A stretch of DNA of 62,568 nt from Candidatus Saccharimonadota bacterium (GTDB lineage Bacteria; Patescibacteriota; Saccharimonadia; Saccharimonadales; CAIOMD01): the NCBI GenBank assembly GCA_017992295.1, contig JAGOOV010000002.1, positions 1 to 62,568 of the forward strand. The letters run 5' to 3'. Position numbers and translations under genes: made by a program. The notes under the pieces were generated by a model. It was given only the letters and a program-made list of their open reading frames with translations. It had not been told where the DNA came from and ran no database searches. Positions 1 to 57,572 of the stretch are shown here, piece by piece; the first letter of the stretch is position 1, and every line of letters begins with the position of its first letter.

Positions 1-2550
1 TACTTTGTAGTAACCACCACTGGCATCGACTGGGGGAGTGGGTAGACTACCGCCTGCGCCACGGCTATAGTCTATCGCGGTAGTTGGTAACTTACCTTCC
101 AAAGCTCTCTCCCCCTCTCCGAAGGCATAGTCTCCCACCGAAAGACCGTATGGTGCGCGAGGAGGGTTGGTTGCGTTATGGTGAAAAGCGGCTGAGGCCA
201 TAGCTATAGTGCTTCGGGCGATAATAGCGTATTGGGAGGCCGAGGCGATACCCTGAGAGTTGGGAGGGATTGGATTGGTGTTAAAGATGACGTCTCCATT
301 AGTAGCGTGGACGTCGTGGCCGTAAAAACGAGTGTAAGGAACTTCGTAGACGGTAAAATTCTTGGTTTCAGTCGATGTGCCGATAGTAGTAAATCTCGAG
401 TAAGAAGTACCTGGATCTTGGGCGTCGAGTGTATTGCGCTGTGTTGAGTCTGCATATAATGTTACTACTGTGTCTCCTCCCGTTATAGTAGGAACGGCGT
501 TAGGGGCACTACAATTATAGGTGACGGTCTGAGTGCCCTCACGCAACAACCCGCCGCCGTATGACCAAGTCCTTGTTAAATTATTACCGGCTGACGGACA
601 GGCACTTCTGTCGGCAGCCACTCTGTGGGTTACCGAAAATGTGTTATTGCCTTTTTCGTAATCAGTAACATCAACGTGCGGAGTGAAACCACCATCGGGT
701 GGAGTTCGAAGGCCTACTTCCACACATGCTCTTCCTGAAGTAAATGAAGACTTGTCGTCGTTGCTGACTGATGGTTTAACGATAATACTCTGACAATAAA
801 CTCCAGGTGAGGAAGGCGTAAATCTATTCACTCTCTTGGGCTCGATGCGCTTTCCTGCACCAAGAGGTCCGTGCGTTCTTGTACTAGGCATCGTCGGGGT
901 AGCCCCTCCGCTGTTGGGGTTGCTTACCCAGTAGACCTCCCCACTTCCGCTCTCCCAAATTACTGTCGATTTAAAAGTGTCTTTAACATCCGTTCCGGGA
1001 GCGCCCGGTCTCATACCAGATTTATTAGAAGCGTTCCATATGTCGTGAGTAAACACTACTGGCGGATCACCAACCTGCACGTTGCGTCTGTCAACATCAG
1101 ACGAAGCTCTTAAAGTCCATTTGTGGAATCGGAAATTTATTGTATCAGTAGCACCGTTTTTTGGTTTCCAGTTTTCGTCAACAATAGCATATCCGTAGTC
1201 AGCATGTGAAACTGATATTGTGTAGTGCACCCAGCAACTCAGTTCAAACCTAGCAATACCGTTACGATTTGTTTCTTGTCTAAAAACACGGTTGTCTATT
1301 TCACTATTACAAAGATTGTGATAATTTTGCCCGTTGAACCATACCCTTACCGTAGCCCCCGGAATTTTGTCGCCCGTTACAGAGTCCGTTACAATAACCT
1401 CAAGTTTTCCAATGTGTATTTGGGAACCGGGATTTTTTAACTTGCAACAACTGCCCGATTTATTTAATGCAGGGTGTTCGCATATAGCATAAGCTACTTT
1501 GCCAGTGAATTCGGTATAGATAAATTTTACACCCTCTTGTACATGGTTAATGACCAATTTAAATAATGAGGCGTAAGTTCTCGTATATTGATATATAGCT
1601 TTTCGTTCTCCCATCGATACCTTAAATGAAGATGTATATGCGTCCCAGCTATTGTGAGCACCACCATTCCGTGCTGTTAACACTGCAACGCCAAAGTAAC
1701 CACCTGCAGATTTATAAACTGGAGTTACCTGCCCCGGGGTAGTTAATTTTGAAATATTTTGCCAGTCCTCTCGACCCTCGAAATATTCTTTGTCGTTACT
1801 CCCATTTAAACCGGTAAATTTATAACTATCAATAAACGGTCTATGCCATAATGTGCTATTTTCGAATGAGTCGACAATGTCTTCGGGTTTCTTGCCTGAA
1901 ATCATCTGCTGCCTGAGCTCGTTAGCCTTCGCTAAAGCCTGCTCCACTCCTTGTTGGTCGTTGCCGTAAACATCGTATCTTACAAATAACACCTCACCAC
2001 TGTAGCTTGCGACTACTTCTGTTACTAGTTTTTCTTTAATGAGTTCTAGTTTTAGGTTCTCTAGATATTGTTCTTTAGTCCAGCCGTATGTCTCTCGTAG
2101 CATGGTCAAAAAATCAGTTTCTCTGCCGTATTCCGCTACCCTTTTACGGTATTCTTCATTTAACTCTTTGTCCGAAACTGTAATATTCTTCTTTTTTGAT
2201 CCTTGAGATATGAACGCCTTTTCTTTTAAGTGGTTTTTAGCCTTTTCGTACACTTCCTTTTCGGATAAATTCTTGTTGGAAGCCCGCCAAGCTTTTTTAT
2301 TTAAATTAGCATCTTTGGCAATATCAGACTTATAAATTTTTACACCGTTTACTGTTAAAACGGGTCTTTCTTTGATGAACAGAAAGTAGAACCCGACACA
2401 TACAGCAATTACAATTATTAAAATTAAAACTGTTATTAGTTTATTGTTTTTAATTTTAAGCATGACGTTTTTAACGTTAGCACACTTAACCGCTCCACTT
2501 ATTACTTCACCGCTTTTGTTACTTGGATCTTTTTTAGTGATATTTATCAT
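1..2550 (-). CDS. Large membrane-anchored surface protein, C-terminus cut by the window edge (TM helix; SurA/PpiD-like chaperone N-domain; carboxypeptidase-regulatory-like beta-sandwich; long Gly/Thr/Asn-rich remainder)
   Basis: Hand translation of the minus strand from ATG at 2550 (AGAGGA RBS 6-7 nt upstream) gave 850 codons with no stop, ending exactly at base 1. It is missing from the ORF track because it has no in-window stop. The N-terminus reads MINITKKDPS...LITVLILIIVIAVCVGFYFLFI (TM helix). It continues VNGVKIYKSDIAKD...EQYLENLKLELIKEKL (SurA-N-like), then GKLEVIVTDSVTGDKIPGATVRVWFNG. Confidence 0.75.
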   Translation of the reverse strand, partial: MINITKKDPSNKSGEVISGAVKCANVKNVMLKIKNNKLITVLILIIVIAVCVGFYFLFIKERPVLTVNGVKIYKSDIAKDANLNKKAWRASNKNLSEKEVYEKAKNHLKEKAFISQGSKKKNITVSDKELNEEYRKRVAEYGRETDFLTMLRETYGWTKEQYLENLKLELIKEKLVTEVVASYSGEVLFVRYDVYGNDQQGVEQALAKANELRQQMISGKKPEDIVDSFENSTLWHRPFIDSYKFTGLNGSNDKEYFEGREDWQNISKLTTPGQVTPVYKSAGGYFGVAVLTARNGGAHNSWDAYTSSFKVSMGERKAIYQYTRTYASLFKLVINHVQEGVKFIYTEFTGKVAYAICEHPALNKSGSCCKLKNPGSQIHIGKLEVIVTDSVTGDKIPGATVRVWFNGQNYHNLCNSEIDNRVFRQETNRNGIARFELSCWVHYTISVSHADYGYAIVDENWKPKNGATDTINFRFHKWTLRASSDVDRRNVQVGDPPVVFTHDIWNASNKSGMRPGAPGTDVKDTFKSTVIWESGSGEVYWVSNPNSGGATPTMPSTRTHGPLGAGKRIEPKRVNRFTPSSPGVYCQSIIVKPSVSNDDKSSFTSGRACVEVGLRTPPDGGFTPHVDVTDYEKGNNTFSVTHRVAADRSACPSAGNNLTRTWSYGGGLLREGTQTVTYNCSAPNAVPTITGGDTVVTLYADSTQRNTLDAQDPGTSYSRFTTIGTSTETKNFTVYEVPYTRFYGHDVHATNGDVIFNTNPIPPNSQGIASASQYAIIARSTIAMASAAFHHNATNPPRAPYGLSVGDYAFGEGERALEGKLPTTAIDYSRGAGGSLPTPPVDASGGYYKV

Positions 2551-5268: not shown

Positions 5269-5788
5269 TTATTTCATCGCCCTGTTTAATAAAAGCCGGT
5301 ACCTTAACGATAATTCCGGTTTCTAGCTTGGCATCTTTGACTACGCTGGTAGAAGTATCTCCCTTAACTACGTCTTCGGTATATACAACCTTTAAAAATA
5401 CATTCTTTGGCAATTCCACGCTAATTGGCTTTTGGCCGAACATTTGCAGTTTAACGGCGTCTCCTTCTTTGAGATAACCGGCAGCCTCTTGGGCGGTGTC
5501 ACCTTCTATTTCTAGCTGTTCATAAGTATCGGAATCCATAAAAAACAGTTTATATTTATTTTTGTAAAGGTATTGTACGCTCTTAAAAGAAACATCAGCC
5601 GGCTCAATTACCTCACTGCCTTTAAAAGTTTTGTTCAACACCTTACCGTCCACTAGACTTTTAATGCGTACGTTAACAATAGAACCGCCACGTCCCATCA
5701 CTTTTTGAGAATAGTCCACAACTTTATAGGGGTGTCCTTCCAGTTGAAAAACAGTTCCTTTCTTAAGATCCGTGATGCCAAATGCCAT
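5225..5788 (-). CDS. efp: Elongation factor P
   Basis: 187 aa; reads DLKKGTVFQLEGHPYKVVDYSQKVMGRGGSIVNVRIKSL, the typical EF-P domain I sequence. Confidence 0.95.
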   Translation of the reverse strand: MAFGITDLKKGTVFQLEGHPYKVVDYSQKVMGRGGSIVNVRIKSLVDGKVLNKTFKGSEVIEPADVSFKSVQYLYKNKYKLFFMDSDTYEQLEIEGDTAQEAAGYLKEGDAVKLQMFGQKPISVELPKNVFLKVVYTEDVVKGDTSTSVVKDAKLETGIIVKVPAFIKQGDEISVSTEDGSYRERKK

Positions 5789-43561: not shown

Positions 43562-43651
43562 TGGCGGAGAGGAAGGGATTCGAACCCTTGATGACATTGC
43601 TGCCATACTCACTTTCCAGGCGAGCCAGTTCAACCACTCCTGCACCTCTCC
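43562..43651 (-). tRNA. tRNA-Ser (anticodon GGA), CCA encoded
   Basis: The reverse complement folds as acceptor GGAGAGG/CCUCUCC, anticodon stem CUCGC/GUGAG with loop CUGGAAA, a long variable arm (class II), T-arm AAGGG-UUCGAAU-CCCUU, discriminator G, then CCA. Confidence 0.9.
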
Positions 43652-53851: not shown

Positions 53852-54682
53852 TTAAATTTCGATTTGCCTTTTTAAAAAGTAAAAGAGCTTCATAGTTCCG
53901 AATTTTTGGTATATGTCGATGGCGTTAATGAGCAATGATGATTTTTCGGAATCCTCACCAAGAATATCTTTCGGACTTTCTACTTCTTTAATCTGTTTTT
54001 TTAGGTTTTCTAAACTCTTGTTGTGGTTTATAAAGCTGTCTGATCTAACAGAAAAAACCTCCGGTAACTTATTTTTTAGAGGGCTATGGTCGTATTCTAT
54101 GAACACTTCGTCAATAGAGCCAAACCAATTTTCTGTTTCGATATCACCAATGTTGGCTGACAGTAAGAAGTGCCTGGGCAATACAAACCTTACATGTATC
54201 TCGTCTCCGTAAGGCTCCCCGTCGTCGGTAATGCCCTCAACCAACCTAAACCCTACGGCTTCTACCGGGTATTCTCCCTTGCGGACCGCCGTTTCTTTTG
54301 GTTCCCAGTAGTGCAAATAGTCATAGAAGGTAAATGTCTTTTCTTTGTTTCTTTTTTGTATAGCGCCTGATTTTTCTTCGGAAAGGCGATTGATTTCTAG
54401 ATACTGCAAATAATTGTTATTGCAAGCGCTTCTTAAAGTGCTTTTTGCCGCAATAATTATCTTGTGCCTGATGGTTTCGCCGACCTCTTTTAGCTCGTTA
54501 CTGTCTAACGGTAAAGATAAAGCCAATGTAGCTTCGAATTTTTCTTTGGCCTTATTTAACTCACCTGTTGTTTCGGCAATTTCTTGGTTAAACCTGTCAA
54601 ACTCTTCTTGTTGGCCCCAATTGTTTTCAATCCGCCAATTTGTCACTGGTATAATTACACTAATATTACTTTCATTTGTCAA
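53852..54682 (-). CDS. Hypothetical protein (276 aa)
   Basis: A long ORF with coding-like composition. No recognised motif. Confidence 0.5.
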   Translation of the reverse strand: MTNESNISVIIPVTNWRIENNWGQQEEFDRFNQEIAETTGELNKAKEKFEATLALSLPLDSNELKEVGETIRHKIIIAAKSTLRSACNNNYLQYLEINRLSEEKSGAIQKRNKEKTFTFYDYLHYWEPKETAVRKGEYPVEAVGFRLVEGITDDGEPYGDEIHVRFVLPRHFLLSANIGDIETENWFGSIDEVFIEYDHSPLKNKLPEVFSVRSDSFINHNKSLENLKKQIKEVESPKDILGEDSEKSSLLINAIDIYQKFGTMKLFYFLKRQIEI

Positions 54683-54810
54683 TAATCATTTTTGATGTTA
54701 AAATATCCGAACCTTGAGCGTTGGCTCTTGGTGGTACCTGCCCAAATTTTTGGGCCACTCTACGATTGGAGGGCACGTTGCGTCAAACACAGACCAAGCA
54801 AAGAGTTTTA

Positions 54811-55332
54811 GTGTTCAACTTCTCTGGTTTACCAGAGAACAAGATATACGAAACCATCATGGATGGACTATGGGGTCTTTCCAAGGTGGCGGGCGTGAGG
54901 AGAGTTCATCTGGATCGGTGGGGGAACAGGCTCCGTGTATTCCTTGAGCCCGACGCCGATGCAGGCATGGTGGCGCAGTTGGTAGAGCGCCGCCTCGAAG
55001 CACTCCGGGTATACCATGAGCACCAGGGGCTCTTCGAGCAAGTCGACAAATCTGTCACATACCACGACTGGTTCGTCAGCGTGGATCTCAATGCCAAACT
55101 GAGGTACGTACTAGGGGTTGATGGGCTGAATGAGCTCATCAATCGCGTCAAGGCGCTCGACATCGACGGACGCTCGCTTTCAGTGAGTTCTGGCGGATTT
55201 GTCGTCAAACCGAACAAGAAGAGGGTAGTATTTTTCTATCGTCTTCACGGCGACATTCTTTTCTACCTCAACCTCTTAATTGCGTCGAAGCTCATGGACC
55301 CTGACGCAAGGAGGCAAGTCCAGGAAGACTAG
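54811..55332 (+). CDS. Orphan protein encoded in the GC-rich block (start uncertain: TTG 54721, GTG 54811 or ATG 54859)
   Basis: This is the only frame in the block with balanced, protein-like composition (...LRVFLEPDADAGMVAQLVERRLEALRVYHEHQGLFEQVDK...). GTG 54811 has AAAGAG 5-6 nt upstream. Antisense frames are Ser/Thr/Arg-rich. Confidence 0.5.
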   Translation: MFNFSGLPENKIYETIMDGLWGLSKVAGVRRVHLDRWGNRLRVFLEPDADAGMVAQLVERRLEALRVYHEHQGLFEQVDKSVTYHDWFVSVDLNAKLRYVLGVDGLNELINRVKALDIDGRSLSVSSGGFVVKPNKKRVVFFYRLHGDILFYLNLLIASKLMDPDARRQVQED

Positions 55333-55342
55333 CCTGTAAAAT

Positions 55343-55619
55343 GTGGGTGGCCCCCGGTAGTATCGAATGCGTAAAGCATTTGGTTAGACACTTGCTTACT
55401 AGCTGCCTTCAGTGGCGCTGGGCAAGATCTAAGCTTAGCTTATATCGCACTCGATCTATCGCGGGGCCCCCACGCCCGTATACCCAAAGCGGGCCGTTGT
55501 AGCTGCGTTCTACCGCGCTCCGGCCCACTTTGGGTATCTTTAGGCCAGACTGTGGCTAATTTGCAGAGGCTGTTGTAAGCAAACGTTTACGACTCTCAAA
55601 GCCCAGTCCGGCCTTTTTT
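55343..55619 (+). ncRNA. Structured RNA element 1 (3'-UTR element or independent ncRNA), ending in a stem + U-run
   Basis: Three helical units. (a) 55343-55371 pairs with 55446-55473: about 25 bp, with two single-nt bulges, one A-C mismatch and one small asymmetric internal loop. (b) 55480-55495 pairs with 55522-55537: 10+5 bp. (c) 55542-55555 pairs with 55602-55614 and is followed by TTTTT. Confidence 0.4.
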
Positions 55620-55669
55620 CTTAGCAGTCAATATAACCCGATCCTAATTAGATTTCTAAAAAATTTAAC

Positions 55670-55698
55670 TTGAATTATTTGCCATTCTAAGGTATAAC
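55670..55698 (+). promoter_or_regulatory. Sigma-70-like promoter candidate in the AT-rich spacer between the two structured elements
   Basis: TTGAAT-N17-TATAAC. Confidence 0.4.
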
Positions 55699-55704
55699 GA
55701 TACG

Positions 55705-56215
55705 TATTCAATCGGATTGCTGATTGACGATGAGGCGCGAGACGGTTTAAACATCAAACAATATTTGAAAAATAGCTATCTCTGACGGGTCTTGGACTCT
55801 CTCTTTGCTTGGTATCCAATTGCTATCGTCCCTCTTTTTAGAAATGAGGGAACTTTCTGCCACTAGGCAGACGCCTGGGTATTAAAGCCTTAGAGCTTAG
55901 CCATTCTGGCGATGTGCCAGAAGGATTATACTCTAAGCGAGCAGAGAAAAAGAAAAAGCGTTTCGAGCCAAATTACTTAGGTGAATCGCCCAGAGCAATT
56001 GCTGGGACGCGGCACAGCGCAGTGTCTAGCATACCTTTGTAATTTGGTGCAACGCCCCCGTGCTTCTCTGAAAAGGCGCTTGTGTTATGCGCCGCAAACT
56101 GGCCCAATCAGGGCCACAACCGTGAAAGGGGCCTGCAAAGAAGGCCCATATCTGCTACGCCCTTGGTGAGGGCCTCCGACATTCCTCGTCGGCGGCCCCA
56201 CCTTGGGCCTTTTTT
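55705..56215 (+). ncRNA. Structured RNA element 2 (~500 nt candidate ncRNA of unknown class)
   Basis: At least 9 local hairpins with stems of 5 bp or more, mostly GC-rich. Their arms are at 55829-34/55846-51, 55856-61/55866-71, nested 55889-95/55931-37 around 55904-10/55916-22, 55989-93/56002-06, 56075-79/56089-93, 56101-05/56111-15, 56129-33/56143-47 and 56076-80/56088-92 region equivalents further 3' at 56176-80/56188-92. There is no credible ORF and the element ends at an intrinsic terminator. Confidence 0.4.
56194..56215 (+). terminator. Rho-independent terminator on the + strand
   Basis: GGCCC-CACCTT-GGGCC followed by TTTTTT. The only upstream + strand sequence is non-coding. Confidence 0.65.
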
Positions 56216-56240
56216 ATTTGCTTACTACTAAAATCAAATT

Positions 56241-57572
56241 TTAATAACCGACCTCTTTGAGCACCTCTTTAGCAACTACCCGTTCATCCCAAGGTACCTT
56301 TTTTCCACCCATGTTGCGATAATCTTCGTGGCCAATGCCTGCCAAAACAACGACATCCCCTGTTTTAGCGTCTAAAAAGGCCTGTTTTATGGCTTCTTTC
56401 CTATTGGCTATTTCTTTACATTTGTCGGCTCCCTTGGCCTTTACAATCCCTTCTTTTACTGCTTGACGTATCAAGTCGCCGTCTTCGGTGTAGGTTTCAT
56501 CGTCAGTCAAGTAGATATTGTCGGCGTATTTTGCCACCACTTCACCCATTATTGGCCGCTTGGCTTTATCTCTGTCGCCAGTAGCTCCAAAGACAATGCT
56601 TACCTTGCCTTTAGCAACTTCTTGCAGCGAAGTTAAAACGACTTTAAGAGCATCCGGTGTAACTGCAAAATCGACTAAAACCGTGAATGGTTGACGGCCG
56701 TTAACTACTTCCATGCGGCCCGGCACGACCGGCACCTTTTCTATCCCGGCTACAATAGATTCCGACTCTATTCCTATTTCGGCTGCCAAAGCAGCTGCCA
56801 TAGAGGCGTTATATACATTAAATTCACCTAGCAATTTGGTCTTTAAGTTAACGGCGATTTTACTACTTACCAGCCTGAACGAAGTGCCATTCGGGGTAAG
56901 CTTGATTCCCTTTATCTGATAGTTGGCATTCAGCTTGCCAACGTCAACCTTGCCTTTTTTAACTTTAGTCGCGAAAAAGTCATACCAATCATCATCGGCA
57001 TTCAATATTACTTTTTGTGGGTTGTACTCTGTTAATAAGCGGGCTTTGGCGGAGGCGTAAGATTCCATTGTGCCATGATAATCCAGATGATCTTGACTTA
57101 AATTGGTCACCAGGGCCAACTCCACCGGCACCCCCAAAGTACGATACTGATCAAGGGCATGGCTGGTCACTTCTAAAATAACCCAATCTACTTTTGCTGC
57201 ATTGGCTTTAGCAAAAAACTTCTGTACCGCCCAGGCGCTAGCCAAGGTCATGTGGGTTTTATTAGCCTCTAGCCGACCGTTAACTTCGATAAAAGCGGTG
57301 GTGTACAGAGCAGTTTTTAAACCACTTTCTTTTAGGATTTCGTTGATATAGGCACAAGTCGTTGTTTTTCCATTGGTACCGGTAACGGCGATAACTTTCA
57401 TTTTTTTAGCGGGGAACCTGTAAATGGCGTTAGCTAACAAGGCTTTCTGTTTTCGATATGTTTTTTCTACCTGCCTAATGGCTGTTTTGGGGATAACCTT
57501 TCTGGCTAATTTTTTAACGCTACTCATACTTTTAATTATAGACGATAATAATAGTTTATTTTTTAACGACAA
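56241..57572 (-). CDS. murE: Mur ligase, MurE-type (UDP-MurNAc-L-Ala-D-Glu : diamino acid ligase), non-canonical specificity motif
   Basis: Motifs VTGTNGKTTT, GDRDKAKRP and GIGHEDY. The start is uncertain (TTG 57572 or ATG 57527). Confidence 0.85.
   Translation of the reverse strand: MSLKNKLLLSSIIKSMSSVKKLARKVIPKTAIRQVEKTYRKQKALLANAIYRFPAKKMKVIAVTGTNGKTTTCAYINEILKESGLKTALYTTAFIEVNGRLEANKTHMTLASAWAVQKFFAKANAAKVDWVILEVTSHALDQYRTLGVPVELALVTNLSQDHLDYHGTMESYASAKARLLTEYNPQKVILNADDDWYDFFATKVKKGKVDVGKLNANYQIKGIKLTPNGTSFRLVSSKIAVNLKTKLLGEFNVYNASMAAALAAEIGIESESIVAGIEKVPVVPGRMEVVNGRQPFTVLVDFAVTPDALKVVLTSLQEVAKGKVSIVFGATGDRDKAKRPIMGEVVAKYADNIYLTDDETYTEDGDLIRQAVKEGIVKAKGADKCKEIANRKEAIKQAFLDAKTGDVVVLAGIGHEDYRNMGGKKVPWDERVVAKEVLKEVGY

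Follow-up and report, generated by a model that had tools for sequence, protein, structure and literature searches.

A candidate structured RNA gene of approximately 510 nt beside murE in a Saccharibacteria genome

The locus and the predicted RNA

We analysed a 62,568-nt stretch of DNA from a Candidatus Saccharimonadota bacterium (contig JAGOOV010000002.1; hereafter the window), in which an island of 1.56 kb (54683–56240) is bordered by a gene for a hypothetical 276-aa protein (hyp276, 53852–54682, minus strand) and by the convergent gene murE (56241–57572, minus strand). The GC content of the island is approximately 50 %, compared with 41 % window-wide, and the genes around it include a phosphoglucomutase-family gene, murE and tsaD; the relatives of its MurE assign the window to Candidatus Saccharibacteria (TM7). 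The island carries a candidate non-coding RNA (ncRNA) of approximately 510 nt, referred to here as RNA-B (55705–56215, plus strand), with a 5′ end placed from the −10 hexamer and a 3′ end at the T-run of a terminator. The original prediction for this DNA had proposed a ncRNA of unknown class at this position. That proposal was supported, with no match to a known family and no coding signal in a homologue, and we consider it very probable that a real structured ncRNA gene is located at 55705–56215.

The predicted promoter of RNA-B, P2 (55670–55698, plus strand), was read from the sequence as TTGAAT (55670–55675), a 17-nt spacer and TATAAC (55693–55698), in agreement with the original prediction. 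A consensus promoter scan omits P2, because its rule requires T as the final base of the −10 hexamer, which is C here. At the other end, a terminator scan identified the intrinsic terminator T2 (56194–56215, plus strand), composed of GGCCC-CACCTT-GGGCC plus T6, i.e. GGCCCCACCTTGGGCC followed by TTTTTT, and the stop codon of murE is located 25 nt past it; a terminator just ahead of the convergent murE stop had likewise been predicted, and both were confirmed. Since the minus side of T2 is without a U-run, T2 does not read as a bidirectional terminator that would also serve murE.

The plus strand of RNA-B folds with a minimum free energy (MFE) of −202.6 kcal/mol (z −7.2 against 100 dinucleotide shuffles), compared with z −3.8 for the minus strand. 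In a background scan of 41 other 511-nt segments across 62.5 kb, the mean z was −0.5 (sd 1.5), while RNA-B scored −9.8 in the same scan; the sole other outlier overlapped the hairpins just upstream of RNA-B. An RNAalifold consensus of the window with two relatives, the sister species L081 and L083 (2 % different from the window), contained 159 pairs, with substitutions mostly in loops and one-sided changes that were mainly C to U opposite G.

The predicted RNA consists of three parts. The 5′ hairpin H1 (55708–55727, plus strand; TCAATCGG/CTGATTGA) is followed by GACGA, and the changes in L081 are confined to its loop. The multi-branched body (55729–56068, plus strand) is closed by a predicted long-range helix between 55729–55738 and 56060–56068, and its core (about 55780–56050) is the best-conserved part of the molecule, being 93–97 % identical to L081 in sliding windows. 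Within the body, the purine-rich stretch GAGCAGAGAAAAAGAAAAAG (55941–55958, plus strand) is invariant in the window, L081 and L083; the consensus fold pairs 55938–55947 with 55802–55811 and leaves 55948–55957 single-stranded, so that the 3′ half of the stretch, AAAAAGAAAAA, is predicted to be unpaired. The third part is a GC-rich 3′ hairpin array (56075–56193, plus strand), with hairpins at 56075–56093, 56100–56116, 56129–56147 and 56159–56193. Here the loops vary in L081 with the stems kept (AATCA to CAACT; TGCAAAGAA to TGC-CTTAA), and the first hairpin has changed from GGCGC/GCGCC to GGTGCC/GGTACC, including a double change at 56077/56091. A nested hairpin (CTTAGAG/CTCTAAG around TTCTGGC/GCCAGAA) and four GGCCC/GGGCC-type stems, both noted in the original prediction, were found at 55889–55937 and at 56101–56116, 56129–56147, 56159–56175 and 56176–56199, respectively. 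RNA-B is single copy in the window. The locus contains no direct-repeat family besides the two terminators and no tandem repeat in 54600–56240; one weak row of the TRF search (56251–56274) falls within murE.

Upstream of RNA-B, the island contains orfX (54721–55332, plus strand), encoding a hypothetical protein of approximately 173–203 aa, and then a region designated RNA-A (55333–55620, plus strand), which comprises three long near-perfect hairpins 3′ of orfX. The last of these is the terminator T1 (55542–55620), which has a 16-nt string in common with T2. The palindromes of the RNA-A region fold equally well on either strand (z −8.75 for plus and −9.4 for minus). Both transcription units of the locus begin with a promoter ending in TATAAC (54676–54704 and 55670–55698), followed after approximately 9 nt by a hairpin. 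As for the gene on the far side of the island, hyp276 gave no domain match and the N-terminal half of its product is predicted to be long helical; it is kept in 9/9 lineages, yet the proteins of the window and L001 are only approximately 28 % identical. An intermediate homologue of hyp276 (P0143, 64 % identity) was found on a 7381-nt JGI contig, which probably also carries the MurE P0016.

Conservation in close relatives

The island was recovered at 99.9–100 % identity from no fewer than ten independent public assemblies (JGI, ENA, Logan and NCBI); samples with the exact sequence include JGI 3300028568 and 3300025866, SRR8476675, SRR8441130, ERZ795049 and ERR13624444. L083 differed from the window at a single position in RNA-B, compared with 9 positions in orfX and 24 in the upstream hairpins. 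Several of the 24 differences of L083 in 55333–55620 agree with L081, and this mosaic divergence suggests, at the level of sequence comparison, recombination breakpoints within the island.

L081 is 91.5 % identical to the window over 11.3 kb. RNA-B is approximately 90 % identical between the two (a divergence of about 9–10 %), compared with 73 % (27 % divergent) for the promoter-bearing spacer, and the synonymous divergence (pS) of four flanking genes is 0.13–0.30. Judged by these values, RNA-B is 2–3 times better conserved than neutral sites. L081 retains both hexamers of P2 (TTGAAC/TATAAC), although the spacer between them diverges, and the sequence of T2 is the same in the window, L081 and L083.

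The 53 substitutions of L081 were mapped onto the MFE fold of the window, and the number of broken pairs was compared with a permutation in which each substitution was moved to a random position of the same base. Only six pairs were broken, compared with 19.7±2.8 expected, and none of 5000 permutations was as low. In the same test, five pairs were changed on both sides, compared with 0.75 expected. In the RNAalifold consensus, a double compensatory change from A-U to G-C was located at 55972/56043.

A coding signal in homologues would, according to the original prediction, speak against a ncRNA, and none was found in the comparison with L081. The substitutions were distributed over the three codon positions as 18/15/12 in RNA-B (P=0.55), compared with 20/8/79 in murE. 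The two RNAs also differ by five indel columns (runs of 1, 1, 2 and 1 nt), which break every frame. No gene was called within RNA-B in any public assembly examined.

The same chromosomal slot in other lineages

Seven species-level lineages with MurE 64–69 % identical to that of the window (L001, L002, L095, L096/L097, L178, L179 and L180) have the same order: PGM, a hypothetical gene of approximately 265 aa, a divergent orfX, 0.7–0.9 kb of non-coding DNA, sometimes an extra open reading frame (ORF), and murE. The recurring modules are, in order, a promoter (P1) with a 5′ hairpin, orfX, T1, a second promoter, 500–600 nt without a conserved ORF, and a second terminator. In each of the nine lineages, the RNA is preceded by orfX. 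The whole module was missing from relatives with MurE identity of 62 % or less (L003–L080), and nhmmer searches with RNA-B against 80 Saccharibacteria murE loci (GTDB) detected nothing outside the subclade. A metagenome scan with generic Mur-ligase motifs from the MurE alignment returned only relatives of 37 % identity or less.

Pattern matching recognized the second promoter in eight lineages out of nine, in the form of TTGAnn/TTGCAA-17-TATAAC in the distant ones (L001, L002, L095, L096, L178 and L180). L179 carries a weaker TTGATA ... TATAAA in its place and two further called ORFs in the gap, and its RNA was left out of the RNA analyses. TATAAC-ending promoters, often in the form of GTGTATAAC or ATATAAC, also occur around region coordinate 30 in L001, L002, L095, L096 and L179, and the clade may prefer TATAAC as its −10 hexamer. 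The T1 module, GTnTACGAC ... GCCCnG ... GGSCTTTTTT, is locus-specific, and no other non-coding sequence of the locus is as well conserved clade-wide; in L002, the motif is located at the RNA's own terminator instead. The extra hypothetical ORF, on the strand of the RNA and between the RNA and murE, encodes 110–198 aa without a Pfam match (L001 5319–5705, L095 1727–2059, L178 2441–3037 and L179 4790–5179, all on the minus strand in locus coordinates), and is not present in the window, L081, L002 or L096.

The RNAs at this slot (sister RNAs) are mutually homologous (nhmmer E 1e-12 to 1e-24) and share long-range helices, e.g. a 14-bp helix, CACCCUGGGUGG/CCACCCAGGGUG, and GGUGC/GCGCC. Their 5′ hairpin covaries (CGAGC/GCTCG, CTGT/ACAG and CGGT/ACCG), with changes on both sides in five of six pairs. 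In a rough MAFFT alignment of six sister RNAs, 83 % of cells were paired, compared with 31–47 % when the partners were slid, and 28 of 70 pairs were double-changed, compared with 6–14 when slid; none of 500 shuffles reached the observed values, although, with this alignment also the source of the structure, these figures lean towards it. In an independent pairwise test of L001 against L178, the number of broken pairs was 9 on the plus strand and 19 on the minus strand, with 25–28 expected, and this asymmetry fixes the plus strand.

We consider it likely, but unproven, that RNA-B of the window and the sister RNAs are orthologous. Because the RNA bodies are unalignable with that of the window, orthology rests on synteny, the promoter and the covarying 5′ hairpin. 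Membership is supported by the common slot and promoter, the 5′ hairpin followed by GACGA and the similar length, and also by an nhmmer similarity between L081 and L001 that starts in T1, spans the promoter and reaches approximately 45 nt into the RNA (E about 1e-6). When a covariance model of six sister 5′ modules was searched against both strands of the window with filters off, the top match in the whole 62.5 kb was 55699–55793 on the plus strand, with the full model covered.

Known families, alternative explanations and the proposed role

A search of the whole window against Rfam 15 (4227 models) at gathering thresholds, a check proposed in the original prediction, detected only a tRNA outside the candidate, and no significant match to any family within it. 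At E≤10 over 54500–56400, only chance-level matches to mir-1549 (17.9 bits versus 91 needed) and CRISPR-DR58 (16.8 versus 38) were obtained. At the level of model searches, these null results exclude RNase P RNA, transfer-messenger RNA (tmRNA), 6S RNA, signal recognition particle (SRP) RNA, OLE, ROOL, GOLLD, HEARO and raiA. ARAGORN detected no tmRNA, its sole match in the window being tRNA-Ser (43562–43651). Relatives, the sister RNAs included, were also without a match to these Rfam families (L001, L002, L007, L095, L096 and L178–L180) or by ARAGORN (eight related loci). Phage and plasmid collections contained no BLASTN match to the 1.5-kb island, and a pattern scan of IMG/VR with the window motif was likewise negative. 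Two IMG/VR matches to the sister-RNA motif were taken as chance, because the family hidden Markov model (HMM) did not match the fetched viral DNA. A literature search combining Saccharibacteria or the Candidate Phyla Radiation with structured ncRNA or RNase P RNA returned nothing relevant.

Taking these results together, we think it probable that RNA-B is an independent ncRNA gene of approximately 510 nt that acts by its fold and forms part of a three-part, subclade-restricted locus. Transcription from the sigma-70-type promoter at 55670–55698 to T2 would yield a discrete plus-strand RNA of approximately 510 nt. This product would act via its folded shape and not via a reading frame, the predicted fold being the 5′ hairpin, the large multi-branched body with its long-range closure and the 3′ array of GC hairpins. 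The locus, which appears to be confined to one Saccharibacteria subclade, would thus combine the hypothetical gene of approximately 265 aa, the fast-evolving orfX and the RNA gene. In the sister lineages, the slot would be filled by a 500–600-nt RNA with the same promoter and covarying 5′ hairpin, covarying long-range helices of its own and a sequence beyond alignment. RNA-B has the features of the descriptive class of large structured ncRNA genes, namely its own promoter and terminator, no conserved ORF and a structure kept by selection, the depth of comparison for the last being small.

Several observations weigh against this interpretation or parts of it. L081 is the one informative relative that is both divergent and alignable, and the covariation is thin (2 to 5 double changes). 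The minus-strand fold also shows helix conservation, with 8 broken pairs compared with 21.1 expected, as it must when helices are symmetric; a minus-strand or DNA-level reading is disfavoured, and folding energy, promoter and terminator favour the plus strand. The covariance-model match to the window RNA scored no more than 11.4 bits (E 0.37), the window gave no match to a profile HMM built from six sister RNAs, and a non-homologous sequence may have replaced the RNA body. For the same pair of genomes, RNA-B is 90 % identical while the orfX protein is 53 % identical, which argues against tight co-evolution of the two. Finally, no motif indicating a specific biochemical activity was found in RNA-B.

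Among the alternatives, a cis-acting or antisense element would be either the long, structured 3′ part of an orfX mRNA or a convergent RNA that disturbs murE in its transcription or 3′ end formation. The placement of RNA-B between the same-strand orfX and the convergent murE, so close to the murE stop codon, would suit such an element; murE has no recognizable terminator of its own before it runs antisense into the RNA gene, and the string common to T1 and T2 also fits. We nevertheless regard this explanation as unlikely. RNA-B is preceded by a promoter of its own, which has conserved hexamers and follows the strong T1, it stops short of murE without overlap, and another gene parts the RNA from murE in L001, L095, L178 and L179, so that their adjacency is not conserved. 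The sole notable complementarity to the orfX mRNA, a perfect match of 13 nt (55801–55813, CTCTTTGCTTGGT in the RNA, with 54793–54805), is no better than chance (E 0.84) and is interrupted by two mismatches in L081, and it was rejected as a base-pairing target. Because the promoter is conserved and lies behind a strong terminator, because RNA-B overlaps no neighbouring gene in the window, and because neither murE adjacency nor any target complementarity is conserved, action in trans, either as a structured scaffold or as the partner of a protein, would be favoured over antisense or cis regulation.

We also considered a non-functional relic, i.e. a decayed gene or mobile-element remnant in which GC palindromes fold by accident or act as DNA, and judged it quite improbable. 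The island is indeed richer in GC than the window average, the neighbouring long palindromes fold equally well on both strands, and the RNA body is unalignable with those of the sister lineages. In addition, the unit resembles that of orfX (promoter, 5′ hairpin, approximately 550 nt and a similar terminator), in keeping with an old tandem duplication; however, tblastn of all orfX proteins against all RNAs detected no translated similarity, and the idea that RNA-B is a decayed orfX paralogue was rejected. A relic is also not expected to diverge from L081 2–3 times less than neutral sites, with promoter hexamers conserved, with substitutions that avoid helix breakage so that loops change and stems are kept, and with a plus strand that folds much better than the minus strand. 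The phage, plasmid and IMG/VR searches gave no match that would point to a mobile source.

A highly divergent housekeeping RNA (RNase P RNA, tmRNA, 6S RNA or SRP RNA) missed by standard models appears very improbable, even though a length of approximately 500 nt with long-range helices would suit RNase P RNA or tmRNA and reduced genomes seldom keep 0.9 kb of non-coding DNA needlessly. The models of all four RNAs were silent at E≤10 over 1.9 kb of the window and 1.1 kb of L095, and in other relatives as well. The body of RNA-B is beyond HMM detection between genomes with MurE 65 % identical, and universal catalytic RNAs do not behave in this way; furthermore, the slot is without the RNA in L003–L080. 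RNase P RNA was accordingly rejected, there being no family model match in the window or relatives, no HMM-detectable slow core and no such RNA at this locus in L003–L080, and so was tmRNA, for which neither a tRNA-like acceptor and T-arm nor a tag frame was found (ARAGORN and Rfam null). The original prediction had rightly been cautious about a local resemblance to RNase P J11/12, since no RNase P model scores. Similar isolated strings occur in single relatives: the sister RNA of L095 (about 2520–2545, minus strand) holds a CR-I-like string (GGAAAGUCCGCC/GGAAAGUCCG/GGAAAGUCCGCCGG), and that of L002 (about 5520–5545, minus strand) holds a string like the P4 3′ strand (CCGGCUUAUAUC/CCGGCUUAU/AGAUCCGGCUUAUAUC). 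As evidence for RNase P, these strings were rejected; they are absent from the other members, the P4-like string of L002 lies mid-molecule instead of towards the 3′ end, and the RNase P models are silent.

That the locus instead encodes one or more small proteins is scarcely credible, despite several ORFs of 40–64 codons (e.g. of 42, 49 or 62 codons) on both strands, because the 62-codon GTG frame at 55981 (55981–56169), which the original prediction had already called junk-like, is shifted by a 2-nt indel in L081 and has no Pfam match, the 42-codon frame shows 2 synonymous versus 5 non-synonymous codon changes, there is no 3-nt periodicity, and public assemblies call no gene here.

Returning to an independent RNA gene as the favoured explanation, orfX is the first candidate partner, because it is the only constant neighbour of the RNA. 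Compared with L081, orfX is 65 % identical in nucleotide and 53 % in amino acid sequence, without gaps, while its flanks are 92–94 % identical; its synonymous divergence (dS) is 1.22, compared with 0.15–0.38 in neighbouring genes, with dN/dS of 0.29. On this sequence comparison, orfX may be described as a real protein gene in an old or imported version rather than as a gene in decay, and it looks like an allele swapped by recombination, with sharp boundaries at approximately 54750 and 55330. Clade-wide homology of orfX is visible only as a BLASTP chain. A phmmer (HMMER) search against 1.84 billion representative proteins gave three matches, of which one is the representative of its own cluster, one is a protein of 34 % identity and one is probably spurious, and neither orfX nor hyp276 gave a sequence match to Pfam, NCBIfam, PADLOC, PHROGs or PDB.

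The AlphaFold models were poor, with predicted local distance difference test (pLDDT) values of 52 for orfX and 37 for hyp276. The orfX model suggests tandem beta-alpha-beta-beta-alpha-beta (ferredoxin-like) units, and Foldseek returned generic ferredoxin-fold neighbours with TM-scores of 0.3–0.4, including ACT domains, IS608 TnpA, Csy4 and ribosomal protein S6. Binding of nucleic acid or a ligand by orfX, as such models might hint, is a lead and nothing more. The partnership is weakened by the fact that RNA-B changes little where orfX changes a lot, and we regard a joint function of RNA-B and orfX as a tentative and somewhat doubtful proposal.

The likenesses to known systems are of a general kind. 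Like OLE, ROOL, GOLLD and raiA RNAs, RNA-B is several hundred nucleotides long, has no reading frame and forms many helices, including long-range ones; it was likewise found by comparative analysis, has a restricted range and stands in a context from which its function is not obvious. It differs from them in matching no Rfam model, in its narrower range (one subclade, nine lineages), in its faster sequence turnover and in its constant linkage to one fast-evolving protein gene. RNA-B resembles 6S RNA, which is often missed by sequence searches, in being a stand-alone promoter-to-terminator gene with a fast-changing sequence and a kept architecture. However, 6S RNA, of approximately 180–200 nt, is a single extended, irregular hairpin whose central bubble imitates an open promoter, whereas RNA-B is approximately 510 nt long, multi-branched and without a match to RF00013. 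With RNase P RNA (type A/B), it shares a comparable size, a multi-domain fold, long-range helices and isolated strings, in the window or in single relatives, that are reminiscent of CR-I or J11/12, but it matches no model, the conserved regions are unshared, it evolves too fast and it is absent at the locus in close genomes.

A hairpin-rich RNA beside a small fast-evolving protein is also a feature of Cas6 with its crRNA, of IS200/IS605 TnpA/TnpB (omega-RNA, HEARO) and of type III toxin–antitoxin systems, and the resemblance of orfX to IS608 TnpA and Csy4 is that of weak structural neighbours (TM-scores 0.3–0.4 on a model of pLDDT 52). Unlike these systems, the RNA-B/orfX locus has neither repeats nor a conserved HUH motif, Pfam and PADLOC recognized no domain of the Cas, TnpA/TnpB or ToxN type in it, and its RNA has its own promoter and is located downstream of the protein gene. 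Type III toxin–antitoxin RNAs consist of tandem direct repeats of approximately 35 nt upstream of an endoribonuclease toxin gene; this class was rejected for RNA-B, which has no tandem repeats and whose neighbours carry no toxin domain by PADLOC or Pfam. An IS200/IS605 element was rejected in view of the lack of a Y1_Tnp or TnpB Pfam match in eight orfX homologues, the single copy and the fixed position in nine lineages. Altogether, RNA-B is a new, narrowly distributed and fast-evolving family of a known general kind that matches no known family.

To our knowledge, there are only a handful of structured bacterial RNAs longer than 400 nt with unknown function, and each has given new RNA biology. 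Saccharibacteria genomes are approximately 1 Mb in size with little spare DNA, and a 0.9-kb non-coding block kept in one slot in nine lineages of such small genomes therefore likely matters to the cell. We also raise the speculative and rather unlikely reading that RNA-B and its sisters are a new RNA class forming a clade-specific ribonucleoprotein module with a hypervariable orfX under arms-race or balancing selection. If so, orfX may bind hairpins as a protein of tandem ferredoxin-like, Cas6- or TnpA-like type, the role might be, for example, in host interaction or phage defence of these episymbiotic bacteria, and both the replacement of the orfX allele and the turnover of RNA sequence under a kept architecture would be explained. 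The locus is a natural experiment that brings together a very old or imported protein allele, an RNA whose sequence changes under preserved helices and, separating the two, a strongly conserved terminator module. Should RNA-B and orfX cooperate, they would represent a new RNA–protein system in an uncultivated phylum that is medically and environmentally widespread.

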